NCBI GenBank assembly: GCA_017465545.1
Contig: JAFTVY010000054.1
Location: 4,613 to 68,612 of the forward strand
Origin: Ruminiclostridium sp.
GTDB taxonomy: Bacteria > Bacillota > Clostridia > Oscillospirales > Ruminococcaceae
Direction of reading: 5' to 3'
DNA length: 64,000 nt
The translations under genes and the position numbers were made by a program. The notes beneath the pieces were generated by a model. That model was given only the letters and a program-made list of their open reading frames with translations, did no database searches and was not told the origin of the DNA. Shown here one piece after another: positions 11,041 through 63,611 of this stretch. Within the stretch, counting starts at the first letter, position 1. Each line of letters opens with the position of its first letter.

Positions 11041-11195
11041 TATATATATCCCTTTCACAATAGCAATAATCTGCTGATATAAAAAGTCAGAAAAATGCTA
11101 TTTATTTTTTAAGAAAAGTATATCATTTCTCTTATTACTGTGCTATAATAAATTTATAAATAAATTGTAAAAATCTATCATAGGAGGTTTTTGAT

Positions 11196-12077: not shown

Positions 12078-12148
12078 ATTTTTATTCATAATATGATACA
12101 ATATATTAAATATAGCTTTAATGAGAACAAAAAGAAGGAAATGACGTA

Positions 12149-13024
12149 ATGAGAGATATATATACAGACGAAAAATGCCCCGTATGTACCATCGCCTTCA
12201 GAGAAGACGACGACGTGGTGGTCTGCCCCGACTGTGGCACTCCCTATCATCGTGATTGCTACAAGAGTCAGGGCGGCTGCGTTTTTGCCGACAGACACGG
12301 AAGCTACACCTGGAAGGGCGATAAGCAGGTACTTAAAGAGCATTGCGAAAATATACACAGCGCAAAGATGAAAAAGCTTGCCGACAGCGAGGATGACGGC
12401 ATAGATATGACTACCGTCCACTCGGTGGAGGAGCTGAGAGAGGCGATGGACAGACAGCTTCTGAAGCAGCAGAAGGATTTTCCCGCGGTTGACGGAGTTG
12501 ACGCTGAGGAGCTGGTCAAGTTCTGTGGGAAGAATGCGGCGTATTATCTGCCTGTTTTCAGAGATATAATCAGCCGTGGACAGATACTGAAGCTCAATTT
12601 TTCAGCCTTTATCTTTTTCCCGCTTCATTGCTTTTTCAGAAGAATGAATCTGTTCGGCGTGATGATGCTTTTATTTATCATGCTTTTCGGAGAAGCAAGA
12701 GTGCTTATGGCGGATCCCGGCAACCTTCTCGGAATCGCACCCGAAATGGCACAGCTCTTTACGGTGCTTGCATCGGCGGCGATGCTGGCGATTCAGGTGT
12801 TTGTGCTGATGTTCTTCAATTTCTTCTATTTCCGTTTTGCGTTAAAGAAGATACGCAGTATAAAGAACGAATTTGCATCCTACAGCAGAAGAGAGGTGCT
12901 TCAGCGCATTTCGGAGGCAGGCAGACCGAGTCTTTTCAGCGGACTTGCCTTTGGTGTGTGTGCGGTGATAGTTATTTCTCTCGGCTTTCAGATACTTAAT
13001 AATTACCTCGGAGTAGCAATATAA
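12149..13024 (+). CDS. prokaryotic RING-finger / DUF2628-like membrane protein
   Basis: CPVC...CPDCGTPYHRDC...C zinc-finger pattern; C-terminal FNFSAFIFFPLHCFFRRM plus TM helices. Confidence 0.7.
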   Translation: MRDIYTDEKCPVCTIAFREDDDVVVCPDCGTPYHRDCYKSQGGCVFADRHGSYTWKGDKQVLKEHCENIHSAKMKKLADSEDDGIDMTTVHSVEELREAMDRQLLKQQKDFPAVDGVDAEELVKFCGKNAAYYLPVFRDIISRGQILKLNFSAFIFFPLHCFFRRMNLFGVMMLLFIMLFGEARVLMADPGNLLGIAPEMAQLFTVLASAAMLAIQVFVLMFFNFFYFRFALKKIRSIKNEFASYSRREVLQRISEAGRPSLFSGLAFGVCAVIVISLGFQILNNYLGVAI

Positions 13025-42567: not shown

Positions 42568-42602
42568 ACGTTCTTATTGATCGGACCTTCGCCCGTTTTT
42601 CA

Positions 42603-42755
42603 TCAGCAGATTTTTTCCTGCAGAATATCAAGCACCTCTCCGAAGCGCTGGAAGTGTACTACCTCCCTTTCACGAAGGAACTTGATAACGTTAGCTACGT
42701 CGGGATCGTCGCACATTCTTAAAATGTTGTCATAGGTAGCACGGGCTTTCTGTTC
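42603..42755 (-). pseudogene. cotJC: 3' half of a cotJC / manganese-catalase family gene, cut by the integrative element
   Basis: Reads EQKARATYDNILRMCDDPDVANVIKFLREREVVHFQRFGEVLDILQEKIC*, matching the CotJC C-terminus. It has no own start or RBS, and similarity ends about 30 bp from the recombinase stop. Confidence 0.85.
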
Positions 42756-42782
42756 TGGTGCAATTATGCAAGCACAAACTTT

Positions 42783-44336
42783 TCAGAAATTCCAGTGGAT
42801 TTCTATGGGAACATCCCTTGTTCCGGGGATTCGTTTGCCGATAGATATGTAATCAATCAGAATTTCCACGATTTCACGGTCAAGATGCTCCAGATTGGTG
42901 TATTGCTCGATCAGTTCACGGCGATTATCTCCGACAGCTATTTTTCCATCAATGTCAGCTATCTGTTTTTCGCCCTCTGAGACGATGCTTTGCAGGCGAT
43001 CCTTCTGGACGGTAAAATCCTTTGTCAGCTCTTCAAAATCCTTGTTCGTTATCAGGCCCTTGACCTTATCCATGTAAAGCTCTCTGATGCCTTTAGCATA
43101 CTCTTCGATTTTATTGCGGTACGCAGTAAGATCCTTCTGTATGCGTTTTTTCTGTGCCTGAAGATTGTTGCAGAATTCTATGTTCTGCTGTAACTCGTCC
43201 TTGTCAAGAAATTCTTCGGAAAGTCGGTTTAATTCGGCAATCACAAGCTTTTCCAGACGGTCAACCGATATAAAAGCACCTTCACAGGCATCCTTTGCAA
43301 CGTGACGGTTTGAGCATTGCAGGTAGTGTCTGTTGCCGTTTTTTGATGATCTCATAATGTAACCGCAACCGGCACACCGTGTTTTCTTGGCGAATAAACC
43401 GATCGTTCCGATTTCAAAGGGCTTTGCACGCTCTTTAACCATATGCTGTACTCTGTCCCACAGTTCTCTGTCAATAATAGGCTCGTGTGTTCCCTCGACA
43501 ATGTACCACTGACTTTTAGGTCGTGGTTTATTCTGTTTTGTCTTGTAGGAAACACTGCCGTATTTACCCTGAACCATATTGCCGATATAGATTTCATTCG
43601 TCAGCATATCGGATATCGCAAAGTATTTCCATAGCGTGCTGTTTTTCATCTTCGGCTGCTTGTAGCGAAGACCTTTTATACGCTTGTATTCAGTTGGATT
43701 TGGTATGCCTCGGTCATTAAGTATTCGGGCGATTGCGGTTTTACCGTAACCCTTTGAAAAGAGGGTAAATACTTCCCGTACTACAGCGGCGGCTTCCTCA
43801 TCAATGATAAGATGACCTTTTCTTTCGGGGTCCTTCTTATAGCCATACAGTGCAAATGCACCGATGTGGAAACCATTTTCCCGCCTGCTTGTAAGAACGC
43901 TGCGGATGTTTTCCGACATATCCTCAAGATACCATTCGTTTACAAGTCCGTTGATCTGGCGTGATTTTTTGTTGCCCTTGTTTGCGGTATCGGCGTTATC
44001 TATGATACTTATAAAGCGGATACCCCAGATAGGGAAAAGTCCGTGTATGTACTTTTCAACCAGCTCAAGCTCACGGGTAAAACGTGATTGGGTTTTGCAG
44101 AGGATGATATCGAACTTTCGTTTTTCAGCATCGTTCAGCAGACGATTGAATTCGGGACGACGCCTGTCAGAACCCGTATAGTCATCATCGCTGTAGATGT
44201 CGAATAATTCCCAGCCTTGTTCTGTGGCATATTGCAGGAGCATTGCCTTCTGGTTTTGTATGCTGACCGAGTCATCGGTTTCAAATTGCTTGTTTCTATC
44301 TTCTTCGGATAATCTACAATAAATAGCTACTTTCAT
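42783..44336 (-). CDS. large serine recombinase (TndX/TnpX-like integrase)
   Basis: YCRLS catalytic Ser, KTQSRFTR, recombinase domain, CAGC..C..C zinc ribbon and coiled coil. Confidence 0.95.
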   Translation of the reverse strand: MKVAIYCRLSEEDRNKQFETDDSVSIQNQKAMLLQYATEQGWELFDIYSDDDYTGSDRRRPEFNRLLNDAEKRKFDIILCKTQSRFTRELELVEKYIHGLFPIWGIRFISIIDNADTANKGNKKSRQINGLVNEWYLEDMSENIRSVLTSRRENGFHIGAFALYGYKKDPERKGHLIIDEEAAAVVREVFTLFSKGYGKTAIARILNDRGIPNPTEYKRIKGLRYKQPKMKNSTLWKYFAISDMLTNEIYIGNMVQGKYGSVSYKTKQNKPRPKSQWYIVEGTHEPIIDRELWDRVQHMVKERAKPFEIGTIGLFAKKTRCAGCGYIMRSSKNGNRHYLQCSNRHVAKDACEGAFISVDRLEKLVIAELNRLSEEFLDKDELQQNIEFCNNLQAQKKRIQKDLTAYRNKIEEYAKGIRELYMDKVKGLITNKDFEELTKDFTVQKDRLQSIVSEGEKQIADIDGKIAVGDNRRELIEQYTNLEHLDREIVEILIDYISIGKRIPGTRDVPIEIHWNF

Positions 44337-44405
44337 TGTTTCACCTATAAGATAACGACAAGCTGTTCCAAGCAGTCATTATACCACATAAAAAGGTATT
44401 TGTCA

Positions 44406-44570
44406 TCATAATTCGCATAAATTTATAACTTTTCCTTTCTCTAAACGGTTGATAAGCTCTGTCCATATTTTCGTGTATTCCTTTGTGCTTGTAGTAGTTC
44501 CTCCGTTTTTGAAAATGCTTACGCAAATTGCCTGTTTGTTGCTTGCTTTGGGGTTACTCTTCTGTTCCAT
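44406..44570 (-). CDS. 54-aa protein upstream of the recombinase (not in ORF track)
   Basis: MEQKSNPKASNKQAICVSIFKNGGTTTSTKEYTKIWTELINRLEKGKVINLCEL*, with an AAAGGAG RBS. Confidence 0.65.
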   Translation of the reverse strand: MEQKSNPKASNKQAICVSIFKNGGTTTSTKEYTKIWTELINRLEKGKVINLCEL

Positions 44571-44988
44571 CTGTAAAATCTCCTTTCTTTATTTTCAGTA
44601 CATTTTATGAGTAAAAGCAAGTCTGTTATTACTGGTATAAATGACGGCTCTTCAGACGGCTATCAGCATAGCTCCACGGGAGTTTCACCCTTGCTCTCTC
44701 GGCAACCTTACCCATTGCTTGCGACGCTTTTAACGCTCGAACTGTGGCTATAAGGGAGTATCATTGTACTTTTTATCTCATCATCGCCCATAAACTGCTA
44801 CATTTATTCCACGATACGGGTTGATCGCTCGTTTGCTCTGATGCAAAGTCATGGCGACCGCTCGCACGGCTCAAAGAAAAAAGAATGTATCCGATTTGCC
44901 CTATACTGCGTGTCGTTATCTTACAACGCTTTCTTTGTCAAAATATATTACGCCTGGAGAAAGGGACTATCGCAGGTGCATATATCTG

Positions 44989-45249
44989 CTAAATCTTAAA
45001 TTTAAGAACTGCCTCAATAAGCCTTGACTGAAGCCTGATTCTTACATCCTCATCAACACCATAGTATGTGTATCCTTCTTTTTTACGAAATCGTCTCACG
45101 GATAAGTAGGTGATGTACTTTTCATAGTGGCTGAGTACTATATTCATAGCTTCAGGTTCACCGGCGTTGGCTGAAAGGATAATCGGAAGCGGTAATAAAA
45201 CCTTATCATCCCGATTGTGTTTGATGTCATTCTGATCCTTCATCTGCAT
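44989..45249 (-). CDS. small HTH protein of conjugative-transposon regulatory modules (Tn916 Orf8-like)
   Basis: ANAGEPEAMNIVLSHYEKYI...DEDVRIRLQSRLIEAVLKF pattern. Confidence 0.8.
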   Translation of the reverse strand: MQMKDQNDIKHNRDDKVLLPLPIILSANAGEPEAMNIVLSHYEKYITYLSVRRFRKKEGYTYYGVDEDVRIRLQSRLIEAVLKFKI

Positions 45250-45667
45250 GCTCCTCCAAATATTGTCGCAGAATTTTCAATATACATTTTCGACTATACT
45301 GTGCCGTACTTCTTGGTATGTGGTATCGCTTTGCAATACTTGCATCACTCATATTGCAAAAATAATACAGTTCAATAGTATTCTGCTTGTCCTCGGGCAA
45401 TGCTTCAATGGCTTTATACAGAAGCTCGGGAGTTATTTTTTTACCACCTGCAAGTATATATTTGCCACGATTTTCATTGCTCATCTGCATCTGAATGGTA
45501 TGTAATTGGTTTAGTTCCTTGAATGTCAGATCGGAAAAACATACATAGTGCTTTCTGTAGCGTTTCGCATCTCTGTGTGCATTAATTGCCTCACGCTTCA
45601 GAACCTTTTTGCAAAAGCCGTTAAAAGCACATTGAATCTGAAGTGGAGTCCTTGTAGAATCGCTCAA
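45227..45667 (-). CDS. sigma70 region-4 domain protein (Tn916 Orf7-like)
   Basis: IQCAFNGFCKKVLKREAINAHRD and LYKAIEALPEDKQNTIELYYF..SDASIA; TTG start after GGAGGTG. Confidence 0.85.
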   Translation of the reverse strand: MSDSTRTPLQIQCAFNGFCKKVLKREAINAHRDAKRYRKHYVCFSDLTFKELNQLHTIQMQMSNENRGKYILAGGKKITPELLYKAIEALPEDKQNTIELYYFCNMSDASIAKRYHIPRSTAQYSRKCILKILRQYLEEHADEGSE

Positions 45668-45838
45668 GATAATCACCTCCTTTCGCAACCGCGAAAGCGG
45701 GGTTTTTTCCCTTCCACTACCTACAACACCAAGTTTTAAAACTGCCAAAGAAAATCGGCTAATTTCACAGTAATTTCATATACATTTCAGATAGTTTTCA
45801 CAAATAAACGGTTTTTTGGGGAAATTGGTGAGAAAAAA

Positions 45839-45969: not shown

Positions 45970-46644
45970 TTATCTGGTTAAGTCCGTGTCTGATACTATC
46001 TTTCCATCAGACAGTTCGATTATTCGGTTGCATTTTTGGGCTATTTGTTTATCGTGAGTAACAATTACAATCGTTTTACCTTCCTTGTTAAGCTTTAAAA
46101 ACAGTTCCATAATTTCCTCTGATGTTTTGCTGTCAAGAGCACCTGTAGGCTCGTCGGCAAGAATCAGAGACGGATTGTTTATAACTGCTCTTGCGATAGC
46201 TACTCTTTGCTTCTGACCACCGGAAAGTTTATATGATGGAGTGTCCTTTTTTTCACTTAATCCGACAAGATTTAAAATATCTCTGATGGATTTTTCTTTA
46301 TTTAGATTTTTCTTACTATATATAAGCGGGATTGCTATATTCTGACTTACCGTGTATCTTTCTACTAAAGCAAAGTCCTGAAGGACAATGCCAATTTCCA
46401 TATTTCTTAATCTTGCCTTTTCTTCTTCGGGAAGTGACGATGCTTTTTTCTCATTTATGTAATACCCACCTTCCGATGCACTATCGAGCAGTCCCATAAT
46501 ATTGAGAAGAGTGGACTTACCACTACCACTTTTACCTATAATTGCAACCAGTTCTCCGTCATTTATTTCAAAGCTGACATCATTGAGAGCCCTGACTTCT
46601 TCTCCACCATAAAATATTTTGGTAAGATTTTTTATTCTGAACAA
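45970..46644 (-). CDS. ABC transporter ATP-binding protein (MacB/LolD-like)
   Basis: GKSGSGKST, LSGGQKQR and LADEPTGALD motifs. Confidence 0.95.
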   Translation of the reverse strand: MFRIKNLTKIFYGGEEVRALNDVSFEINDGELVAIIGKSGSGKSTLLNIMGLLDSASEGGYYINEKKASSLPEEEKARLRNMEIGIVLQDFALVERYTVSQNIAIPLIYSKKNLNKEKSIRDILNLVGLSEKKDTPSYKLSGGQKQRVAIARAVINNPSLILADEPTGALDSKTSEEIMELFLKLNKEGKTIVIVTHDKQIAQKCNRIIELSDGKIVSDTDLTR

Positions 46645-47769
46645 TTATTTTCCCTCCCTGATAGACGATAAGATGGATAATCTCTTTAATTTTACCGCAA
46701 ATGGTATTATTGTAATCAAAAGCACTGCAACGCCTGTTATGGCAATGCCTGTTGCGGCAATCACTGTTCTGAATATCAACGATGCAACCACTCCGCTTGT
46801 GAATATTACGATAAAGCTACCTGCACTTACTCTCAATAAAATATTTGAAAGTTTTGCTCCGCATATTCTGTGGATTAATAGCTCTGTCAAATTTCTTCTT
46901 ATAAAAAGCATGGCTGATTGTATCAAACAAAATATTGCAAGCGTTATAATTATAAGTGAAATTATAATTAGCGGTGCCGCTGTCTGCGTTGACATATGAT
47001 TAATAAGCTGCTTTGTTCCGCTGAGTGAAATAAAATTAAAAGGATACATCCCAAGCTTTTCCGCATAATCGTTTATAGCCTTCAGCTGGGCTTTGTCATC
47101 GGAATAAATCAGCGAGGAGGGATATTCATAATGGTTTTGTTTCATACAAGACAAGCTTTTTACAGGGAAAAGTACATCTGAATCAACACTTACAGGTTTA
47201 CTTCTTTCTCCCGCAAGATTTATAATCTTTTGTCCATCCTTTAATATCCCTATTACTTTATATTTATTGTGATAAAAATCACCAACCTTATAGCTGTCTT
47301 TATAGTAATTGCCCAGTATTACGGGAGTATTTTCCATAGTGTCGCTGTAGTATTCTTCTTCTAGAAAAAGCCGTCCGCTTTCCGTTTCAAGTTTATAGAT
47401 ATTAAAGAAATCCTCTGAAACAAAGGTCATAGTGTAGCTGTTTTCACCCGCATCGATGAAGTTGTGACTATAACCAGATGCTTTGAAATTTTCCGCTATG
47501 TAATAGCTTAATTTTCTTTCTGTTTCAATATCCATCTCGGTAACGGTGATGCCGCTGAATGTGTAGATTTCTGTGCTGATTTTACCGTAATACTTGTCGG
47601 AGAAATTAAAGCTGTCAAGATTTTCTATTGTATCGTTGGTATAGTTTGCTATGCCGATGATGTTACCAATTACAATGAATGCTATAAGAGTCTGAATGGT
47701 TAGCAGGATAAAGAATTTTTTATCCGCTTTGATGTCCGAAATAATTAGCTTTATGTATTCTTTTATCAT
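46645..47769 (-). CDS. FtsX/MacB-type ABC permease
   Basis: N-terminal TM, large extracytoplasmic loop, ELLIHRICGA motif and 3 C-terminal TMs. Confidence 0.85.
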   Translation of the reverse strand: MIKEYIKLIISDIKADKKFFILLTIQTLIAFIVIGNIIGIANYTNDTIENLDSFNFSDKYYGKISTEIYTFSGITVTEMDIETERKLSYYIAENFKASGYSHNFIDAGENSYTMTFVSEDFFNIYKLETESGRLFLEEEYYSDTMENTPVILGNYYKDSYKVGDFYHNKYKVIGILKDGQKIINLAGERSKPVSVDSDVLFPVKSLSCMKQNHYEYPSSLIYSDDKAQLKAINDYAEKLGMYPFNFISLSGTKQLINHMSTQTAAPLIIISLIIITLAIFCLIQSAMLFIRRNLTELLIHRICGAKLSNILLRVSAGSFIVIFTSGVVASLIFRTVIAATGIAITGVAVLLITIIPFAVKLKRLSILSSIREGK

Positions 47770-47770
47770 T

Positions 47771-48811
47771 TTAAAGCCTCCTTAATTCAGCAACTTGTCC
47801 GTCTGAGAAATCTGCGGCACAATCGCAGGATACAACTAAACTGACAAGCATTAAAAACAAAGAGGATATAAAGCCTGCTGTAAGCTCGATTCTACCTAGA
47901 AAAAAAGATACAACAGGTAGATTTGAAACTATCAGAGTCAGTAAAAATCCTAAAAAAACACCTGTAAGTGATGTAATCAGATAGTATTTGAATACAAGTC
48001 TTTTGATGTCATTATCACTCGCACCACATATCCGCCTTGCCATAATTTCTGATTTTTTCGAGCCTATCCAGGAGCTTGTAAAAACCCCAGCATTAATAAC
48101 AAGCAAAAGCCCTATCAGGAGAATTCCTATAACTATGATAATTTTATCCGGACCTATAACATTATTTTCTTCTTTTACTTTGGGCATTTTAGTTACTGTA
48201 AAATCTGCCTCTCGATTCTTTTTTTGTATCTTTTCTCTGAACTGCTCGCTGACAGTTGACGTTTCTTCATCAGCATCAATTATAATTGTTATGCCTTTGA
48301 ATGTTACATCGCTGTTTTTTAATCCAGCTATGTTAAGTAAAAAGTCAGGATTGTCGGATCCTGAATATATATCAAGTCCTGTTATCTGATAATCCTCTCC
48401 CATTAAATTTATGGTAGGCTGTTGCTCTATTTCCATTGAATACGGCAAAAGCACGGTTTTTATTACTGCCTGCGGCGTTTCACTTCTAAGATCAAGCGAT
48501 TGCCAGGAACTTTTTAATGCACTGTCGTCTTTGTAATTGTATAGAATGTAACCTGTCTGATTATAGGTTGTAAACTCTATTGCACCCTTTGCTTTACATT
48601 CTGAGAGCACATTAATAACATCAGTGTAACCAAGTGCATTGCTGGAATTATTATCCTGCGTTAGCACAATATACTTTGCATTATCTGAAAATTGATTTAT
48701 TATATCAGCTCTACCTTTGTTGATAAGCATTGATATAAGGAATGTGCAAAGAAAAAAGGTGGCCGTAAAAAAAGCTAATATCATACCGCTTTTATAAAAT
48801 ATCTGTTTCAT
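47771..48811 (-). CDS. FtsX/MacB-type ABC permease
   Basis: Same topology; EIMARRICGA motif. Confidence 0.85.
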   Translation of the reverse strand: MKQIFYKSGMILAFFTATFFLCTFLISMLINKGRADIINQFSDNAKYIVLTQDNNSSNALGYTDVINVLSECKAKGAIEFTTYNQTGYILYNYKDDSALKSSWQSLDLRSETPQAVIKTVLLPYSMEIEQQPTINLMGEDYQITGLDIYSGSDNPDFLLNIAGLKNSDVTFKGITIIIDADEETSTVSEQFREKIQKKNREADFTVTKMPKVKEENNVIGPDKIIIVIGILLIGLLLVINAGVFTSSWIGSKKSEIMARRICGASDNDIKRLVFKYYLITSLTGVFLGFLLTLIVSNLPVVSFFLGRIELTAGFISSLFLMLVSLVVSCDCAADFSDGQVAELRRL

Positions 48812-48846
48812 GGTTCATCCGTTCTTTCGAAAATATAATTGCAGAG

Positions 48847-48878
48847 TATATCCCCATCGTTGTTTCGATGGGGATATA
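48847..48878. terminator. strong hairpin between the secreted-protein gene and the ABC operon
   Basis: TATATCCCCATCG-ttgttt-CGATGGGGATATA. Confidence 0.6.
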
Positions 48879-49060
48879 TTTATAATCGAAAAAGGTTATC
48901 TTACACTGAGTATAATTAAACAATAACTTTATCTCTGCAAAAGAAAAACCTACTTTTAAGTTTTTTATTGTAAAAAACTTTATAATATTTTACGCTTAAC
49001 TTTCAACAGCTAATATTGCTTCCTGGTAAAATTATAAATCAAAAAGCGTCACAATGCTAT

Positions 49061-49516
49061 TTAATAGTTGTAGCAAAACACCTTATATCTTGTTGAGTAT
49101 CCCTGAAGAAGTGTTCCTACTCCGTAAAAAGTACATTGTGCAGAATCTGTGAGGTTGCTTGAAACAATTGTTCTACTTTCATCTGTGAAATAATCGCATA
49201 AATAATAAGTGTATACACGTTCATTAGATGTTATTGTAGTAGGCATGGTCCCTTTCTGGCATTCTGTATTTGGCCAGGCATTTTCATATGCTTGAACAAA
49301 AATTTGACTTATGTGTTTACCATAGCTGGTACCGTAACCGCCACTAGCTGGGTATGAAGGTGTGAACTCACCAGAAATATATGTTCTGAATGCATTAGAA
49401 TCATAGTATATTCGCATAGGCAGACCTTCGTTAGCTGCTGATGCGACTAATGAAAATATTGATGTTAGCATTATAGCAAGTACTAATATGCTGCAGAAGC
49501 ATTTTTTGATTTTCAT
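49061..49516 (-). CDS. secreted 151-aa protein, bacteriocin-like context
   Basis: Sec signal ending ASA-A; aromatic-rich mature part with 4 Cys; lies between agrD and the ABC exporter. Confidence 0.75.
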   Translation of the reverse strand: MKIKKCFCSILVLAIMLTSIFSLVASAANEGLPMRIYYDSNAFRTYISGEFTPSYPASGGYGTSYGKHISQIFVQAYENAWPNTECQKGTMPTTITSNERVYTYYLCDYFTDESRTIVSSNLTDSAQCTFYGVGTLLQGYSTRYKVFCYNY

Positions 49517-49650
49517 AAGTATTCCTCTTTCCGCTCTTGATTATGAGCATACATCTGTTTCATTTTCGTTGGTTTTGAGTTGCTGAAAACTCGCACCTAT
49601 TCACCCTAACAAAGGAATTTAATAATAGGGAGAATAGGTGCATAGTTTAA

Positions 49651-49785
49651 TTACTTGCAAAGCTTCTTTAAGTTTGCAGGTTCCTTGGGCTGGTATGTTC
49701 CGTAATAAGATGCGGTACCGCAAGCCTTCTTTGCCATAGACATAGATACGCGTGCTATGGTCTTAGCAATGCTCTTCTTTAACAT
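49651..49785 (-). CDS. agrD: AgrD cyclic-lactone autoinducer precursor (44 aa, not in ORF track)
   Basis: MLKKSIAKTIARVSMSMAKKACGTASYYGTYQPKEPANLKKLCK*; amphipathic leader, YQPKEP signature, GGAGGTG RBS, overlaps the agrB end. Confidence 0.9.
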   Translation of the reverse strand: MLKKSIAKTIARVSMSMAKKACGTASYYGTYQPKEPANLKKLCK

Positions 49786-50377
49786 TGTGACTACACCTCC
49801 TTTGTATTGTTTTTTCTATTTTCGCCATGACTGCAACTGTGAACAGGGTTACAATCATCAGAAATCCGTATTGTAATTTAAAAGTTATTAAGAATATTCC
49901 GATAACGGAAATTAAAAAAGATATTATGATTGAAAATATTTTGTGCTTTTTCTTTTGGTAAGTATCTATCGGTTTATGTGGATTTATTACCGGTGCCAAA
50001 ATGGAAATAGATGATACAGACACAGTAGCGATTATTACTCCGCAAAATATTATAATTTCATTAGAGAAATAAAGATTAAGTAATTTGCTTATACAACAAC
50101 ACAATGTGAATGAAAGAGAAAAGATCAAATTGCACTTAAAATACGTTGATGCGTGATATCCACCGCAAAAAGATCGAAGAGGAATAAATGACAAAAGAAA
50201 GAATACTGCGAGCAGAAAATCATTCATAATAAAGCTGATAACAAAAATTAATGTAAAGTTTAAAACGGAAGAAAGCGTTATTTCTATTCCATACCTATAA
50301 ACATCAATCATATCGTCTTCGATATGAATATTTTTCTTCATAAAAGAAAGAATAATTTCTGTGGTTTCCTTTATCAT
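49763..50377 (-). CDS. agrB: accessory gene regulator B peptidase
   Basis: VYRYGIE, PLRSFCGGYHA..YFKC and APVINPHKP motifs. Confidence 0.93.
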   Translation of the reverse strand: MIKETTEIILSFMKKNIHIEDDMIDVYRYGIEITLSSVLNFTLIFVISFIMNDFLLAVFFLLSFIPLRSFCGGYHASTYFKCNLIFSLSFTLCCCISKLLNLYFSNEIIIFCGVIIATVSVSSISILAPVINPHKPIDTYQKKKHKIFSIIISFLISVIGIFLITFKLQYGFLMIVTLFTVAVMAKIEKTIQRRCSHNVKEEHC

Positions 50378-50532
50378 TCATATCACCTGATGTGATAATA
50401 TAATAAAATGAACATGTTGTCAATGCTTCTGGGAAGTTCGGCAATATCTTGTGATGTTCGGTAACAAATATTGTGAAAAATAAAAAAACAAGGCTTATAG
50501 CAAAGTATAAGTCTTGTTCAAAATGATTGTAT

Positions 50533-51852
50533 TTATATGTGGTGATATAAAATAACATTACAGAAAAACATGTTATTTTTTTCGTAAAAGTCACAGCAAC
50601 CTTTATATTTTTCGGCAATCTGATTTATCGTTTTAAGTCCGAATCCGTGAATTTCTTTATTGCTCTTTGTAGTTTTAAGCTTGCTGTTTTTAGATAAAAC
50701 CGATTCACTTATAGAATTACCAATGGTAATTATTATTTTGGTTTCGTCTGTTGAAGAAATACAGCAGTTTATTCCTTTGTATCCGTTTTTGTCTCGGCAA
50801 CAGCCTTCGATAGCATTATCAAAAATATTTCCAAGCAGGTTACAGAAATCTATATCTGATACTCCTGTAAAATTTGTGTTACAAGAAATGACGACTTCAA
50901 TCCCCTTGCTTTTGGCAATAGATATTTTGGTGTTAATAATGGCGTTTATAAATGCATTTCCTACATCTACAGAAGCACTTAATTCGTTAACCTGATTAGA
51001 GCATTTGTCAAGATATTCACCCATTTCTCTGTATTTATGCTCTTTGTGAAGCATTGACAGTACTTCTATGTTTTGCTTCATGTCATGTCGCACACGCCTG
51101 GTTTCTTCATATTGATTTTTTACCATCTGTGCATACTGAATTCTATGTTCTTGTTCCTGCTTCTCGATTTTCAGCTTAATCGCTTCATTGTTGCTTTTAC
51201 TCATAAGTGTTGTTATGTAGAAGCACGTTACATTTAAGATAATCAATCCGAATTCTGCAAAAAGAAGAACACGATGCTCGTTATATTGCAGGTTAATACG
51301 GAGTTGCACCATATGTATGAGGGTAATAGAGATGAGTGAAACAACAAAAACCGAGATTATCAGCGACCATTCTTTTGTTTTGAGTGCTACATCTTTGTTA
51401 GTGGTGATTTTAAGTATGATTCCGAAGATATATACAAGCAGTATTTGCACACTCATTACAGCTATGAATCTTTCCACTGAGTAGGTAGTATATATGTTAG
51501 TAATATCGTTCGAGAATGCCGCAGAAACCACACTGGTAACCAATGCACTTGTAGAAGCAATTATCACATTGGTTATAATTGAAATAAATATTTTTTTGAT
51601 AAGTGAGCCAGGCAAAAACAGCGAATAAATAAAGAACTGAACCGTGTAAATTACGCCATAAACGCCTTCGTATAAAGTCAGCCGGTTTACGATTGTTACA
51701 ATAATTGCAAAGGATAAGCTTCCTATAATATAAAGCAATTTTCCGTTTCTGGTGCTAAGATCTTGTTTCAGAAACTTGTTTATAAAATAGCACACAACGA
51801 AATTCTCAAATAGAGTTACTGTTGTTTCAAAGATTGTCCATATAATGTCCAT
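50533..51852 (-). CDS. agrC: AgrC-like GHKL sensor histidine kinase
   Basis: About 6 TMs; RRVRHDMKQ, NLLGNIFDNAIE and HGFGL motifs. Confidence 0.9.
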   Translation of the reverse strand: MDIIWTIFETTVTLFENFVVCYFINKFLKQDLSTRNGKLLYIIGSLSFAIIVTIVNRLTLYEGVYGVIYTVQFFIYSLFLPGSLIKKIFISIITNVIIASTSALVTSVVSAAFSNDITNIYTTYSVERFIAVMSVQILLVYIFGIILKITTNKDVALKTKEWSLIISVFVVSLISITLIHMVQLRINLQYNEHRVLLFAEFGLIILNVTCFYITTLMSKSNNEAIKLKIEKQEQEHRIQYAQMVKNQYEETRRVRHDMKQNIEVLSMLHKEHKYREMGEYLDKCSNQVNELSASVDVGNAFINAIINTKISIAKSKGIEVVISCNTNFTGVSDIDFCNLLGNIFDNAIEGCCRDKNGYKGINCCISSTDETKIIITIGNSISESVLSKNSKLKTTKSNKEIHGFGLKTINQIAEKYKGCCDFYEKNNMFFCNVILYHHI

Positions 51853-51862
51853 GTAAGACTCC

Positions 51863-52588
51863 TTAAAGTACCTCGCGGGTGAAATATTTGTACCTATCCG
51901 AAAAATCGTTTTTACATCTTCGGCTGATTGTTATTTTTTCGTTGTTTTTCAGATGAACAGTGTGATTTGGATAATCAATCCATTTGATGTAATTCATATT
52001 GACAAGAAAGCGACTGTGAGTTTTTGCAAAATGCTTTTCGGGTAAAAGTTCGGTGAATGATTCCAATGTTTTTCGAACTTTTGTCTTTTCTCCGGATATG
52101 AGAGTTATTTCTAGATAATTCGCTTTGCTTGACACACATACAATGTCTTTGATAACAATTCGTTTTTCTTCTCTGTACGGAAGTTCTATAGTGATAGTCT
52201 TTGATGTTTCGAGAAAAACAGCTAATTTTTCGATAACATTTTTTAAATAAATATCCATTGCGTGTTCATTGCCCTTGTACACGAAATGGAATGGTCTATA
52301 ATCTAGACTGCTTTGAATTAATTGATTTTCAGTTGTAACAAATACTATTACAGTTTTTTCGGACAAATCCCGAATGTCTTTTGCAACATCGAACCCGCTC
52401 GTTTTAGGCATAAGTATGTCCAAAAAAACTACATCGTAAGGTTGTGCGTGATGTGCAGATAATAAATTATCACCATAAAGATATTTATCGACATCGCATA
52501 TGATGTCATAAGTTTCAAAATACATTTTTGCTTTTATTGCTATGCTATCTAGAAAAGCCTTATTATCATCACATACAGCTATACGCAT
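51863..52588 (-). CDS. agrA: LytTR-family response regulator (AgrA-like)
   Basis: IAVCDD, VFLDILMP receiver; KTHSRFLVNMNYI LytTR domain. Confidence 0.92.
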   Translation of the reverse strand: MRIAVCDDNKAFLDSIAIKAKMYFETYDIICDVDKYLYGDNLLSAHHAQPYDVVFLDILMPKTSGFDVAKDIRDLSEKTVIVFVTTENQLIQSSLDYRPFHFVYKGNEHAMDIYLKNVIEKLAVFLETSKTITIELPYREEKRIVIKDIVCVSSKANYLEITLISGEKTKVRKTLESFTELLPEKHFAKTHSRFLVNMNYIKWIDYPNHTVHLKNNEKITISRRCKNDFSDRYKYFTREVL

Positions 52589-52733
52589 TTGTATTTTTCC
52601 TCCACGCAAGTATATTAAAAATTCATTTATATAATATATTGATTGAAAATATATACACTTTGTACACCTTTGTACACAGTTCCTTCATTTTGTAGTACAA
52701 TTATTGAAACGGATGTAAGGAGATGATGAACAA

Positions 52734-55555: not shown

Positions 55556-58500
55556 ATGAACAAACCACTACGCCGGGTAATCTCGGCAGCTCTGGCATTA
55601 TCCCTTTCGGTAACGCTTGCGGTAAATGCCTATGCAGAGGCGTCTGCAAACTCATATAGTCAGGAGGCTGCAAGTGCCGGTTATGCCAGAAAAGGACAGT
55701 ATGTGCTGTTCTCTACAGGCGAAAATGCGATGCAGCTTAATACAACCAAAACCACGGTAAACGGAAACCTTTATGCCGGCGGCGATTTAAACTCCTATAG
55801 TGGTGAGGTCGATGTCAATGGTAAAACCGTAATTGGCGGTAAGCTGTACAAGCATGATTATACTGTATGGGACAGCTATATTTTTGAAGAAAATGCGGAC
55901 AAGCAGTCCTTGGATAATGATGCGCTTGATAGTGCTTTCACCTCTATGCTGGGTGAAGATTATCTCACTCACGAATATTGGTATACCTATAGTGGATCTG
56001 AGGTTACAGGAGATGCTTCGATATATGCCAAAAGCGGACTTCAGTATTGTGCTGATTCCGTAAACATTTCGGGTACTCTGATATCGGATAGCTATATGAT
56101 GATAAGTGCATCCAAGGCATTTACTACAGAAGGCGAAATAAATATGTATGTTAAGAACGGCAATGTCGGCATTTACGCAGGTGAAGTCGATATTGACGGC
56201 GTTCTTTACGCACCGAATGGTACAGTACAGATATGTGCGACAGATGTTGACATAAGCGGTATGATCATCGCCAAGGAGATTCAGATAAGTGCACAGAATG
56301 TTACTATCAGCGAAAATCTTACTCTTTCTGTGGCTCAGTATGTGAAATGCTATGAGGATCAGATTTTTGCTATAAATGCAGAATATAACGCAGAAAGCAA
56401 AAATATAGATGTTGCCCTCGCAAGCACATATCCGGGCGGAGCATATAGCATATACACCTCCTGTGATGGAGAGGAATATCTGCTGAATGGCACAACGACT
56501 GAAACAAGCTATAGTTTTGTTGCGGATGAAACTGCAGATGTAATTTATATAAAAGCGGTACAGACTTATGATAACGGAGTTTCTCTTAATTCCAATATCG
56601 TAAAGATGGTAGCTGATGAAGAGCTGGGCTTCGTTCAGGAATATGTTGATACAGACAGCGACGGTCTTATTGATATGTATGAGCATATTTTTGGCAGTGA
56701 CATAGAAAACCCCGACACAGACGGAGACGGCTTGTCCGACTTTGTCGAGGTAATGATGTCTGCTACAGATCCGCTTTATATCGACTCTGACGAAGATGGA
56801 ATCGCTGACGGCGACGAGGACTGCGACGAGGATAAATTAACAAATTTACAGGAAATTGCATATAATACAAGTATCGTGTCAGAAGATACCGACAGTGATG
56901 GCCTTACCGATTATGAAGAAATTTTCACGTATGGCACAAAGCCTGAAAACCCTGATACAGACGGCGATACCATAAATGATGGTGACGAGGTCTCTATTGG
57001 TTTTGATCCTCTCAGTGCCGACTCTGACGGTGACGGAACAGACGACTGCAAGGAAAAGATAAGGCAGACCTATGTTCACGATGTTGAAAATGAAGATTGT
57101 GCCGTTGACGAGGTTATTGTTGACATTGAGGCTACAGGAAATATACAGGCTACAATGTCAGTTGAAAGCGTTATGGGCATTGATGTTCTCTGCTCAAATG
57201 TGGCAGGCCTTGTAGGCGAGCCCTTTGAGATAAACACCACATCTGAATTTGATGAAGCTACCATTACCTTTAAGGTAGATGCAGAAAAGCTCGACACAGA
57301 AATTGACAATCTGGTTATAGTGTGGTATGATGAAGATAATCGCGATTTTGTGATTATGGATACAGTATACGATTTTGAAAATAACACACTCAGCACCGTA
57401 ACCAATCATTTCAGTCTTTATTTTATTTCATTTAGAAAAGAAATGATGGAATACAATAAAGGAACTGCTATAGAGGAATATTATCCGGATATTCAGCTTC
57501 CTGATGTTATTTTTATTGCAACCGGTATGCAGGTGGAAGATGGCACTGCAGAAAATGGTTTGCAAGGTCAGCTTATATCCGATTATTTAGCCTTATCTGA
57601 AGCGGATACAAATCCTGCTATCGCATACAATGCGACAGAAATAATGGTACACAATGGTATATCTTATGAAACCATTGTATCATTTGGTTCGTATAAAACA
57701 GAGGTTGACAACGCATTACAGACCATTGACGAAACCAAGGTGTCTTATGATGGATATGCGGCACTTGCGGCGGCAGTCGGAAAATTCTCATCTGTTGCTT
57801 ACACAAGAGAACACAAAAAGGCAATTGTTGTATTCACTTATGGTGGAAACGAATATGCAAGTGATGATTGGATAGAAGCAGCTATAGAACATAATATAAC
57901 TGTTTGCGTTGTAGCTCTTGGGGACAGCTATTTACTTTCGCTGAAAGAAATAACCGAAAAAACTGGTGGTATATTTGTAACAGCGTCAGATAGTAATGCT
58001 ATGTCAAAAATTTATGACAAGCTTACTAGCTATGACTTATATGACTCCGATATCGACGGATTACCCGATGTGTTTGAAACTGCGGGTATGAAACTGCCTA
58101 CAGGTGAAATTATACGCACCAATATTGATAAGCCTGATAGTGACGATGATGGTTTACTCGACGGAGAAGAAATTGCCTATACCATAAATGACGGCTATGT
58201 TAAATTCAAGCTTGTTTCTAACCCGACATTAGCGGATAGTGATGGGGATGGGTATGATGACAAACACGATTCTACTAAACTTGTATCATCTGTAAGAAAA
58301 ACAGTACTGAAAGAAAATTATATTTCGGTAAAATATGATATGCCAGAATATGATAAAGTTGAACGCTGGGATAATCGTGGTAGTGAAATTTCTTATGGTG
58401 GAAATCAATCTTGGTTTTATAACAAAGATCTAAATATGGGCAATTCAAGAATTGAAAAAAGTGGATGTGGGTTGATAGCAATTTGTGATACTCTTTTATA

Positions 58501-59152
58501 CTTAGCTGAACGTGGAGTTGTTACAATCCCGTTTAATGTTAACCATAGCATATTTGACGATTATGAGATATCAAAAGGAAATCTTTCCCCTTTAGATTGC
58601 CCTTATGACCTTTCATCATATATGCAATATGTTACTGAAATGGAATATTTGAGATTTAATGTTATCAGCTATATTGGCTTGAATGGATTCGATATGGCGA
58701 ATACAATTAATACTTATTTTAAGGGTACAATTTCTGCAAAATGGCAATTTTCTCCTCGGTATAGCAATCCTATTGATCAGAAGTTTATTAATTATACATT
58801 TTTTCAACAGGTCACAGATATGATTAATAATGATATTCCTGTAATTCTTTCGATTGGTCCGTTCAGTTCTGGCGTGTATTTTTATAAATTAGATGAAGTT
58901 AACGACTCCTTACCAAGCTACATAGTGGATTATTTTTGTTACGAGGATCGAGATGGAGATGAAAAATATGAGGCATATCCTTGCTTAGTAAAAGGTCATT
59001 ACGTAACTGTAACAGGAACCGTTGTGGATACCGAAACTAATAAATTGTGGTTGCGAATTTCTTCATGGGGACACGAATATTATATAGATTATTTTGAATA
59101 TTCACCTCAAATAGGCCTATTTACAAACATACTTTGCATATCAAAGGAGTAA
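55556..59152 (+). CDS. secreted multidomain protein: beta-helix-like N-domain, DxDxDG Ca-binding repeats, degenerate vWA, C-terminal papain-fold peptidase
   Basis: Signal peptide; about 10 D(T/S)DxDG repeats; KKAIVVFTYGG / LKEITEKTGG vWA features; YGGNQ..SGCG (Cys971), GHYVTVTG (His1148) and SSWG. Confidence 0.8.
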   Translation: MNKPLRRVISAALALSLSVTLAVNAYAEASANSYSQEAASAGYARKGQYVLFSTGENAMQLNTTKTTVNGNLYAGGDLNSYSGEVDVNGKTVIGGKLYKHDYTVWDSYIFEENADKQSLDNDALDSAFTSMLGEDYLTHEYWYTYSGSEVTGDASIYAKSGLQYCADSVNISGTLISDSYMMISASKAFTTEGEINMYVKNGNVGIYAGEVDIDGVLYAPNGTVQICATDVDISGMIIAKEIQISAQNVTISENLTLSVAQYVKCYEDQIFAINAEYNAESKNIDVALASTYPGGAYSIYTSCDGEEYLLNGTTTETSYSFVADETADVIYIKAVQTYDNGVSLNSNIVKMVADEELGFVQEYVDTDSDGLIDMYEHIFGSDIENPDTDGDGLSDFVEVMMSATDPLYIDSDEDGIADGDEDCDEDKLTNLQEIAYNTSIVSEDTDSDGLTDYEEIFTYGTKPENPDTDGDTINDGDEVSIGFDPLSADSDGDGTDDCKEKIRQTYVHDVENEDCAVDEVIVDIEATGNIQATMSVESVMGIDVLCSNVAGLVGEPFEINTTSEFDEATITFKVDAEKLDTEIDNLVIVWYDEDNRDFVIMDTVYDFENNTLSTVTNHFSLYFISFRKEMMEYNKGTAIEEYYPDIQLPDVIFIATGMQVEDGTAENGLQGQLISDYLALSEADTNPAIAYNATEIMVHNGISYETIVSFGSYKTEVDNALQTIDETKVSYDGYAALAAAVGKFSSVAYTREHKKAIVVFTYGGNEYASDDWIEAAIEHNITVCVVALGDSYLLSLKEITEKTGGIFVTASDSNAMSKIYDKLTSYDLYDSDIDGLPDVFETAGMKLPTGEIIRTNIDKPDSDDDGLLDGEEIAYTINDGYVKFKLVSNPTLADSDGDGYDDKHDSTKLVSSVRKTVLKENYISVKYDMPEYDKVERWDNRGSEISYGGNQSWFYNKDLNMGNSRIEKSGCGLIAICDTLLYLAERGVVTIPFNVNHSIFDDYEISKGNLSPLDCPYDLSSYMQYVTEMEYLRFNVISYIGLNGFDMANTINTYFKGTISAKWQFSPRYSNPIDQKFINYTFFQQVTDMINNDIPVILSIGPFSSGVYFYKLDEVNDSLPSYIVDYFCYEDRDGDEKYEAYPCLVKGHYVTVTGTVVDTETNKLWLRISSWGHEYYIDYFEYSPQIGLFTNILCISKE

Positions 59153-61838: not shown

Positions 61839-63611
61839 ATGATTGAAATAGGAAAAGTTATAAATAGCACTCCTGGCACAATACAGGTGTTGCTAAATAG
61901 TATAGAGGTCTTTGATCAAAATAAATCGAAGATTAAGGTTTCAAAATATTTATCTATCGAGGATGGTAACGACTTATACATACTTGCATCAATTCAAAAT
62001 GTGTGCGCTGTTCAATCCAAAGATGCAGATACAATTAACTATACGGTTTCTTGCGCACCGATAGGATGCTATTCAGAAACTGATATTGGAATTTCTTTTA
62101 GGCAAGGTGGTGTCAATCTTCCTTCGCCTACGGAACCAGCATATTTGCCGGATGACGAAGTCATTAATGCGATTTTTAGTAGCAATGATAATTTTTCGTT
62201 CCAAATAGGAAGCCTTTCTAATAATAATGCGGTAAACTATTTTGTGGATGGAAATAAGTTTTTTGGAAAGCATATAGCCGTTGTAGGCTCTACGGGTTCT
62301 GGTAAGTCTTGCGCGGTTGCTCGTCTCTTGCAAAATATAATGAAGATCAATAATGGTCACAATGAAAATGCCGATTCATTGAAAAATTCTCATGTTATTA
62401 TTTTTGATATTCATTCCGAGTATCAATCGGCTTTTAAACTTGCAATTGAAGAAAACTTTAGTGTAAATTGTCTTGATGTTGAAAAACTTTGTTTGCCGTA
62501 TTGGTTAATGAATTCTCAAGAATTAGAGGCTCTTTTTATAGAAAGCAATGAAATGAATTCTCACAATCAAACATCGCAATTCAAGAAAGCTGTAATTCTC
62601 AGTAAGGAAAAACACAATCCCACTATGGAGCATATCAACTATGATACTCCGGTGTATTTTGATATATCTGAAGTGTACCGGTATATCAAGAACAAAAACA
62701 GCGAGGTTATAAATAAAAACGATACATTGCCACATCTTCCTAAACGTAGTGATGGAACGATAATAAGCGATGCTGACAATGTATATTTGAATGAAGATGT
62801 AACTTTTGCAGCGACAAGCACCGCCAAAGAGTCAAAGACATCAAATGGTCCTTATAATGGGGAGTTTGAGAGATTTGTAACTCGTTTAGAAACAAAGCTA
62901 TCTGACAAGAGACTCAAATTTATAACTGCGCCAAAAAAAGAAAGTGGTGAAGAATTTAAAACAGAAGATTTTGATGTTATTCTTCAACAATTCTTGGGGT
63001 ACATAGACAAAAGTAATGTTACCATTATCGATTTGAGTGCTATACCTTTTGAAGTTCTCAGCATTGTTATTAGTTTGCTCTCGAGAGTTATTTTCGACTT
63101 TGCTTTCCACTATTCAAAACTTCGTCACACATCGGGTTTGGTTAATGATATTCCTTTTATGCTTGTATGCGAAGAAGCTCATAACTATATACCTAAAAAT
63201 GGTGGCGCAGAATATAATGCTTCTAAGCATTCTATTGAGAGAATAGCTAAAGAAGGTAGAAAATACGGATTGAATTTAATGGTTGTAAGTCAAAGACCTT
63301 CTGAAGTATCAGAAACCATTTTCTCACAATGTAACAATTTTATTGTTCTGAAATTAACTAATGTGAACGACCAAAACTGTATTAAAAATTTGCTACCTGA
63401 TAATAATTCTTCGTTGGTTGATACTCTTCCTACTTTAGCGGCTGGTGAATGCCTAGTAGTCGGAGATGCTGTTCCTCTTCCTGCTGTTGTAAAAATGAGT
63501 ATGCCAAATCCTACACCAAGTTCTAGCAATGTTAATGTTTATGATGAGTGGAATAAAGATTGGATTAATATTGCGTTTGAAGAAATTATAAAGCGCTGGA
63601 GAAAAGAGTGA
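61839..63611 (+). CDS. HerA/FtsK-family ATPase, anti-phage associated
   Basis: HAS-barrel N-terminus; GSTGSGKS, FDIHSEY, VCEEAHNY, KEGRKYG and SQRPSE motifs. Confidence 0.92.
   Translation: MIEIGKVINSTPGTIQVLLNSIEVFDQNKSKIKVSKYLSIEDGNDLYILASIQNVCAVQSKDADTINYTVSCAPIGCYSETDIGISFRQGGVNLPSPTEPAYLPDDEVINAIFSSNDNFSFQIGSLSNNNAVNYFVDGNKFFGKHIAVVGSTGSGKSCAVARLLQNIMKINNGHNENADSLKNSHVIIFDIHSEYQSAFKLAIEENFSVNCLDVEKLCLPYWLMNSQELEALFIESNEMNSHNQTSQFKKAVILSKEKHNPTMEHINYDTPVYFDISEVYRYIKNKNSEVINKNDTLPHLPKRSDGTIISDADNVYLNEDVTFAATSTAKESKTSNGPYNGEFERFVTRLETKLSDKRLKFITAPKKESGEEFKTEDFDVILQQFLGYIDKSNVTIIDLSAIPFEVLSIVISLLSRVIFDFAFHYSKLRHTSGLVNDIPFMLVCEEAHNYIPKNGGAEYNASKHSIERIAKEGRKYGLNLMVVSQRPSEVSETIFSQCNNFIVLKLTNVNDQNCIKNLLPDNNSSLVDTLPTLAAGECLVVGDAVPLPAVVKMSMPNPTPSSSNVNVYDEWNKDWINIAFEEIIKRWRKE

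Follow-up and report, generated by a model that had tools for sequence, protein, structure and literature searches.

An integrative element splits the spore-coat gene cotJC of a Ruminiclostridium genome at a fixed codon and may be excised to restore it

Introduction

Is the element that splits the spore-coat gene cotJC in Ruminiclostridium sp. excised in the mother cell so that the gene is made whole during sporulation, or has it settled there at the expense of the gene? The question is raised by a 64,000-nucleotide stretch of contig JAFTVY010000054.1 (assembly GCA_017465545.1, positions 4,613 to 68,612), here called the window; coordinates given without a contig refer to it. An earlier examination of these letters by themselves, the sequence-only reading, had seen an intact, stop-free 3´ half of cotJC beside a large serine recombinase (LSR) and had proposed that the element carrying the recombinase may leave the chromosome during sporulation. 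It had also named what to look for: the 5´ part of the gene with cotJA and cotJB, rejoining in frame, and a second complete cotJC. Rebuilding of a mother-cell gene by excision is known from a handful of cases in Bacillus and Clostridioides, and sporulation is the main route by which gut bacteria of the kind considered here pass between hosts.

Results

The two parts of cotJC and their rejoining

The last 45 of the 185 codons of cotJC lie undecayed on the minus strand of the window at 42603–42753. This host segment runs from the last base of the Glu141 codon through codons 142–185 to the stop codon at 42603–42605 and was recognized by translation and by Pfam (Mn_catalase, the CotJC family, PF05067; profile positions 147–197, E 2.5e-10, 40 bits at a cut-off of 27). 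The segment contains the second of the ExxH metal-ligand motifs (REREVVHFQRF) and aligns to complete orthologues without a gap. The minus-strand frame at 42600–42782 is uninterrupted by stops and translates as KVCACIIAPEQKARATYDNILRMCDDPDVANVIKFLREREVVHFQRFGEVLDILQEKIC, followed by two stop codons; beyond the host-derived codons, the remainder of this open frame of about 59 codons is element DNA that mimics the target (IIAPE compared with DLAAE).

The 5´ part is found on another contig of the same genome (G000), at C60 9897–10303, the window itself being part of contig C57. It matches PF05067 over profile positions 1–151 (C60:9897–10307, E 7e-34) and terminates as ...ADLMEDLAAE-GTPS and a stop codon. 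Upstream of it are cotJA (PF11007, E 1.6e-11) and cotJB (PF12652, E 8e-20); the element interrupts a cotJABC operon, the parts of which lie on two contigs. A PF05067 search of the whole genome (2.6 Mb, 112 contigs) returned two matches, which are these two parts, and no second cotJC. When the parts are joined in silico at the GA that they share, an in-frame CotJC of 185 amino acids results, with its natural stop codon and with DLAAEQKARATY spanning the junction. On all three items named by the sequence-only reading the outcome is the one that its proposal requires.

The joined protein is 85–89% identical from end to end to the complete CotJC of three genomes of the same genus and has no gap at the junction. 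EELGHLE, AAEQKA and REVVHF are all in register with the orthologues, and the match to PF05067 is full-length and includes both ExxH motifs and the bridging Glu, a ligand set that neither half possesses in full by itself. The natural attB of a relative (L012), GCGGAACAGAAAGC, matches the in-silico join. The locus has the potential for exact reconstitution: recombination between attL and attR, as read from their sequences, would restore a complete cotJC in frame.

The crossover dinucleotide GA is located at 42754–42755 (minus strand), is common to attL and attR, and makes up positions 1 and 2 of the Glu141 codon within the conserved metal-ligand motif DLAAEQKA. With a caret at the junction, the core of attL on C60 reads ..GCGGCGGA^GGGTACG and that of attR ..TTGCACCAGA^ACAGAAAGC; the longer junction sequences are GATCTGGCGGCGGA^GGGTACGCCATCGTAAGAACAAAC for attL and, in the reverse complement of the window, AAAGTTTGTGCTTGCATAATTGCACCAGA^ACAGAAAGCCCGT for attR, and the two sites align in register about the shared GA. 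Next to the junction, at the very edge of the element and with its stop codon 27 bp from GA, is an intact gene for a protein of 517 amino acids (42783–44336, minus strand). Its Pfam domains, Resolvase (PF00239), Recombinase (PF07508), Zn_ribbon_recom (PF13408) and DUF4368 (PF14287), identify it as an LSR and give it the architecture of the TndX/TnpX-type resolvases. The sequence-only reading was correct in placing an LSR beside an undecayed, stop-free fragment. Its figures need adjustment: the supposed 50-codon half is a quarter of the gene, and the junction that it had set near 42755–42761, about 25 bp from the recombinase stop, is close to the exact position.

The 27-bp element-side half-site of attR, the P arm (AAAGTTTGTGCTTGCATAATTGCACCA; 42756–42782, minus strand), was delimited by sequence comparison and is conserved 3´ of the recombinase stop in most of 80 related loci. 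With the P´ arm at the opposite end (GGGTACGCCATCGTAAGAACAAACT on C60) it forms an imperfect inverted repeat, which is expected of an attP on which a serine integrase acts. Two metagenome-assembled genomes (MAGs) of other Ruminiclostridium species, L015 and L016, define the boundary independently. In these the recombinases are 100% and 99% identical to that of the window and the cotJC flank has diverged. Their DNA matches the window base for base as far as ...ATTGCACCAGA, which ends exactly after GA, and differs from the next base onward. Near-identical recombinases beside a diverged flank also indicate very recent transfer of the element between species.

The assembly consists of 112 contigs and the two halves of the gene lie on separate contigs without overlap, as might be seen if parts from different organisms had been combined in one MAG, or if the fragment were the remnant of a decaying pseudogene. 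We regard such an artefact as very improbable. Both junction contigs have long host flanks (42.7 kb of the window, or about 47 kb of C57, and 10.3 kb of C60), both halves are about 87–89% identical to orthologues of the same genus, and neither contains a stop or a frameshift. The ends of the element are matching imperfect inverted repeats around the same GA, and the same architecture is present on single contigs in eight other genomes.

The recombinase family and its target

More than 583 relatives of the LSR are present in a collection of species-representative genomes (genome_contigs), of which the best 80, with 79–100% identity, were fetched. They come from Lachnospiraceae, Oscillospiraceae, Anaerotignum, Anaerotruncus, Lacrimispora, Parablautia, Pseudoflavonifractor and others. 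Sixty-six of the 80 loci have a 3´ fragment of cotJC downstream of the recombinase, and wherever it follows directly, the junction is identical (..ATTGCA[G/C]CAGA^RCARAARGC). Eight complete loci from other genomes, each on a single contig, have the same attL, the same attR and the same in-frame join; where both pieces are co-oriented on one contig, the elements measure from 3.7 to about 17 kb, and even those of 3.7 kb retain a complete recombinase and the small open reading frame (ORF) described below. Twenty carrier genomes were searched whole. In every one of them cotJC is present only as fragments broken at this site, mostly as pieces corresponding to positions 1–150 and 147–198, except that a single genome has an extra complete copy; both kinds of fragment are open. 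Cultured carriers of the recombinase family include Anaerotruncus colihominis JM4-15 (L051), Lacrimispora indolis SR3 (L024), Parablautia intestinalis (L072) and, with the element reversed, Anaerotignum lactatifermentans DSM 14214 (L028). These comparisons of sequence demonstrate that the element was inserted by its own LSR at one fixed position in cotJC and that the recombinases of the family have the Glu141 codon as their attB.

In about nine loci (L028, L029, L031, L034, L035, L054, L070, L092 and L093) the element sits reversed at the same site and the junction reads ..TTGCACCA-TC-TGCTGCCAT.., the reverse complement of the 5´ part; insertion in this orientation would require a flipped central dinucleotide in attP. 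In Parablautia intestinalis (L099/L072, G056:C64) two elements stand in tandem in cotJC, one with an intact recombinase and one with its recombinase in pieces, and an attP-like junction, ..TTGCAGCAGA^TGGGGCAGTCTCGTAAGAAC.., connects the two. The genome of the window has a second, unrelated LSR gene (37% identity) at G000:C43 13189–14003, which is cut by the contig end and has no informative neighbours.

Aligned over its full length with annotated TndX, the LSR is 31% identical, and on this comparison it is a distant relative of TndX and not a member of the Tn5397 or Tn4451 family. Close phage relatives of the LSR were not found. This kinship bears on the simplest alternative to timed excision, plain insertional inactivation, in which a dispensable gene offers, in its DNA encoding DLAAEQKA, a target that is both safe and widespread, excision is constitutive at a low level or regulated by the element for the purpose of transfer, and spores are formed without CotJC. 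The recombinase of Tn4451 is reported to integrate and excise without a recombination directionality factor (RDF), excising for transfer (PMC5704250); together with the TndX-like architecture, this keeps insertional inactivation a serious rival. The 100%-identical recombinase in another species, a sign of active recent spread, and the reversed loci point in the same direction. Against it stand the 20 of 20 carrier genomes in which both kinds of cotJC fragment have stayed open, and the convergence of three recombinase lineages on the same small gene.

The latter is seen in the genus of the window, in which cotJC is split more often than it is complete, at three places near profile positions 30, 63 and 148, each within a conserved motif. 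The insertions near positions 30 and 63 have different LSRs, of 489 to 557 amino acids, which again adjoin the 3´ fragment. As a tentative generalization, cotJC could be a developmental landing pad in gut Clostridia, used by at least three unrelated LSR lineages at metal-ligand motifs near codons 30, 63 and 141, each of which would carry a micro-ORF behind a sigma-E-type promoter, the micro-ORFs representing new families of tiny RDFs.

Other arrangements of the gene were encountered in these searches. At G049:C4 53481–106456 (L106) cotJC is in three pieces, parted by elements of about 12 kb and about 40 kb. At G014:C14 58503–63687 (L109) a complete cotJC is followed 4.5 kb downstream by an extra 3´ fragment, possibly a scar or a copy of the target borne by an element. 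In a single-contig genome of the same genus, parts of a cotJC split near codon 63 are 675 kb apart and not collinear (G017:C1 198620–198805 and 873266–873640; L107, L108), such that recombination between them would give two chromosome circles; rearrangement between elements or an assembly error could account for this.

A conserved small ORF and promoter motifs upstream of the recombinase

A conserved ORF of 54 amino acids (MEQKSNPK...CVSIFKNGGTTTS..YTKIWTELINRLEKGK) precedes the recombinase at 44406–44570 on the minus strand. Homologues with the consensus C.SVFKSGE.TT...FT.KWIELIN.LEK, about 50 amino acids long, are present in 55 of the 69 loci in which the ORF was looked for, in most of them 54–91 nt upstream of the recombinase ATG (range 54–287 nt). 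By analogy with GirX and SprB of known excision systems, we infer that it is a candidate RDF.

Two promoter-like motifs accompany this pair of genes. A putative sigma-A-type promoter of the recombinase, TGACAA-N13-TGGTATAAT (44378–44405, minus strand), has a 16-nt gap between TGACAA and TATAAT and an extended -10. Its columns are conserved in an alignment of the upstream regions of 27 loci, where the consensus directly before the LSR is TGACAA and then TGgTAtAAT, again with an extended -10. Such conservation of a vegetative-type promoter before the recombinase would also suit insertional inactivation. The second motif, matching sigma-E-type promoters, is ATA-N17-CATAAAAT at 44602–44629 (minus strand), 31 nt upstream of the small-ORF ATG. 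Its consensus, ATA-N17-CATATAGT, lies 15–35 nt upstream of the ribosome-binding site and ATG of the small ORF. ATA-N16-18-CATAnnnT is found in 47 of the 55 loci compared with about 1% of random 78-nt windows from the same loci and 0.5% of shuffles, figures which, the loci being homologous, measure conservation and not independent occurrence. The consensus motifs derive from Clostridioides difficile, in which sigma-E and sigma-K promoters have a CATA-type -10 in common (PMC3789822).

In minimal elements of 3.7–7 kb (L095–L098) ATA-N17-CATACGTT is retained around a spacer of unrelated sequence, a sign that the promoter elements themselves are under constraint. The motif is thus kept before the small ORF in elements that are devoid of the sigma-like and HTH_16 regulatory genes found in the window copy, contrary to what insertional inactivation would lead one to expect. 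In the smallest of all, L095 (G050:C1 170800–176300), 3.7 kb comprise the recombinase, the small ORF and one ORF of 425 amino acids. Here the sigma-A promoter is absent between the small ORF and the recombinase, so the sigma-E-type promoter may be the sole source of recombinase transcripts, a further point against insertional inactivation. In the codon-63 lineage (L105, L106) a different conserved small ORF lies upstream of the LSR (..HREF.[FY].G...P......EN..FLL..QKA.L.SLEKRKL.T..), and in L105 it is preceded by ATA-N17-CATAAGAT. A spacer motif, CGTACAAG, is common to this lineage and to the minimal elements at codon 141.

On C60, a sigma-K-type motif, AC-N16-CATAGAATA, is located 35 nt upstream of the cotJA ATG. 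In C. difficile the cotJB2-cotD operon and CotJC homologues depend on sigma-K (PMC3789822), and cotJC is presumably expressed in the mother cell here as well. The three sporulation genes that were searched for, spo0A, spoIVA and spoIIID, are present and open in the host genome.

The motif upstream of the small ORF could also be read differently. Excision might be timed by another mechanism, the motif serving a sigma-G-type factor of the forespore (GAATA-N17-CATA) or some other regulator, with the small ORF perhaps not acting as a directionality factor. The -35 region, GAATAG, fits GHATR, the sigma-G consensus of B. subtilis; conservation of the spacer, GGACTTGC or CGTACAAG, hints at a further binding site; and the small ORF has no detectable family. 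Nevertheless, we consider this unlikely. The -10, CATATAGT in the consensus and CATAAAAT in the window, is of the canonical mother-cell type (PMC3789822), and excision in the forespore would leave the spore without the element, an outcome difficult to square with the element's prevalence.

Timing of excision

The layout of a sigma-A-type promoter, a small ORF and a sigma-E-type motif is that of sprA/sprB in SPbeta and of girC/girX in gin, which makes excision in sporulation plausible. In the model that we favour, the recombinase would be made constitutively from the sigma-A-type promoter, and the ORF of about 50 amino acids, behind the sigma-E-type promoter, would act as a directionality factor or activator. 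Excision would be set off in the mother cell ahead of transcription from the sigma-K-type cotJ promoter: attL and attR would recombine at GA, the element would come out as a circle and the 185-amino-acid CotJC would be restored, while the forespore would retain the element. The same excision reaction may serve horizontal transfer in vegetative cells too. Sporulation-timed excision in the mother cell is in our view the best explanation of the locus and a plausible one, about as likely as not.

Several points weigh against it. The promoter assignments are matches to motifs; the conserved spacer GGACTTGC within the sigma-E-type motif has no explanation in the model, and the -35 GAATA would equally fit a forespore sigma-G promoter. 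The small-ORF family gave nothing above threshold in Pfam, NCBIfam or a search of 5.8 billion proteins, its relatives being unnamed or hypothetical. Mutants of B. subtilis in cotJ sporulate, and cotJC is probably dispensable. Very recent spread between species, as attested by the 100%-identical recombinase, can account for intact gene halves without selection, and the RDF-free behaviour reported for the Tn4451 recombinase concerns an enzyme of the same TndX/TnpX architecture. Searches for the predicted attP (exact and degenerate patterns, metagenome_contigs) and for the predicted attB (genome_contigs) returned no match, which is uninformative, as the patterns must match exactly. Insertional inactivation is somewhat less probable than timed excision but has a real chance of being the whole story.

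The body and cargo of the element

Within the window the integrated element occupies 42754–64000. It continues to the end of C57, with 21,778 bp on that contig, and a further 2,172 bp are found on C60 at 10304–12475. The middle is unassembled, and as the ends of C57 and C60 do not overlap, the element has a size of at least 23.9 kb. Its GC content is 35.5%, compared with 44.1% in the flank.

Between the recombination module of LSR and small ORF and the regulators upstream is a pemK RNA motif (Rfam RF02913; 44674–44767, minus strand; 40.3 bits against a gathering score of 34.8). It is also found in relatives of the integrative and conjugative element (ICE) type (L017, L024, L026, L028, L046), is absent from the minimal elements, and may attenuate read-through into the recombination module. 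A conserved structured block upstream of the small ORF had been considered as a riboswitch or intron fragment; this was dropped, the block being the pemK motif and not part of the minimal module. The regulators themselves are an HTH_16 protein (44989–45249, minus strand; Pfam) and a sigma-70 region-4 protein (45227–45748, minus strand; Pfam, and sigma-70 superfamily in NCBIfam), a pair at 44989–45748 that we take to resemble orf8 and orf7 of Tn916. Regulators of its own and the pemK motif upstream of the recombination module would allow the element to control its excision for transfer, as insertional inactivation supposes.

The cargo begins with genes for an ABC ATPase and two MacB/FtsX-type permeases (45970–48811, minus strand; Pfam). 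An ORF of 151 amino acids on the same strand, within 45970–52609, separates them from an agr-type cassette of AgrB, GHKL kinase and LytTR regulator (49763–52609, minus strand; Pfam). An HTH_3 protein is placed between this cassette and a protein of 1198 amino acids with a VWA domain (55556–59152, plus strand; Pfam VWA). Further on is a DUF4297 and HerA anti-phage pair (60525–63611, plus strand; NCBIfam NF042945, E 4e-52, and NF042944, E 9e-184, neither match reaching its equivalog cut-off). The ATPase at 61839–63611 was considered as a conjugation ATPase and rejected as such, NCBIfam identifying it as the HerA partner of DUF4297. The part of the element on C60 encodes a HipA_C-like protein and a DUF4314 protein.

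As to mobility, of type IV secretion, coupling-protein and relaxase genes the assembled sequence shows at most the C-terminus of a VirD4-like coupling protein, cut short at the end of C57 and with a match below the cut-off (T4SS-DNA_transf, E 0.016). The tail of C57 also encodes an HTH_36 protein, and between it and C60 lies the unassembled middle. No phage genes were found in the assembled 24 kb. The element is probably integrative and conjugative, or mobilizable.

Discussion

The locus belongs to a family that is found in hundreds of species of gut Clostridia. If the family is timed as we propose, a large share of the transferable elements of the gut, with quorum-sensing, phage-defence and bacteriocin-like cargo, would be tied to spore formation. 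Should cotJC be a landing pad for several lineages, the mother-cell programme would include not only decayed prophages but also transferable elements, such as the present one with its agr and anti-phage genes. Every round of sporulation would remove them from the chromosome of the mother cell and pass them on through the spore, and some genomes would need two or three excisions in one cell for the sake of one coat protein. If the elements are not timed, they would clearly illustrate how mobile DNA can shelter in a gene that is conserved yet dispensable. Both the candidate directionality factor and the overview of the family merit further work. The attB/attP pair with its GA core and the candidate factor of about 50 amino acids for a TndX-like recombinase could also yield orthogonal recombination tools.

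Interruption of cotJC has been listed before, by Abe et al. (2013, Mol Microbiol 90:415), as cited in bioRxiv 10.1101/2021.11.22.469490, and for a skin-like element in Laceyella sacchari (Galperin et al., 2022; bioRxiv 10.1101/2022.02.25.481979). The target gene and the kind of element are the same, but these reports are brief listings. In the searchable literature we found no published account of the present family in gut Clostridia, of its att sites, of its promoter and small-ORF module or of its RDF candidate.

The skin elements in sigK, with SpoIVCA in B. subtilis and with a directionality factor in C. difficile (PMC5025042), likewise rebuild a gene precisely upon excision. The difference is in what is rebuilt: sigK encodes a regulator and its reconstitution gates late sporulation, whereas cotJC is a structural or enzymatic coat gene, the loss of which is probably tolerated. 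A closer parallel to the module described here is gin in gerE of Bacillus cereus ATCC 10987, a non-phage intervening element with a tiny, motif-less RDF near its recombinase. This factor, GirX, has 42 amino acids and no recognizable motif and works with GirC, and excision of gin is specific to sporulation (PMC5595907). GirX stimulates excision and inhibits integration. The relatives L095–L098 are similarly stripped down. Target gene and recombinase lineage are different, and the copy in the window is large, loaded with cargo and apparently still transferable.

With Tn5397 and Tn4451 (TndX/TnpX) the recombinase shares its domain architecture, including the C-terminal DUF4368, and its alignment to TndX extends over the full length. 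The ends of both transposons have GA, which is also the crossover dinucleotide here, and regulatory genes like those of Tn916 lie nearby. TndX and TnpX accept several targets that contain GA, whereas the present family is strictly specific for one codon of cotJC; in addition, identity is limited to 31%, and here a conserved small ORF stands upstream of the recombinase, behind a promoter of the sporulation type.

SPbeta in spsM of B. subtilis, with the integrase SprA and the directionality factor SprB, is a further instance of an LSR element that interrupts a mother-cell sporulation gene, and the order of its recombination unit is att-int-rdf (PMC6957869). This layout of integrase and small factor is mirrored here by the sigma-A-type promoter of the recombinase and the sigma-E-type motif of the small ORF. 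In SPbeta the integrase is reportedly constitutive, and a small factor under sporulation control is said to set the timing. There, too, one and the same excision reaction serves horizontal spread. The present system differs in having cotJC in place of spsM, a non-phage element, a TndX-like recombinase and a small ORF unrelated to named proteins, and in being known from its sequence alone.

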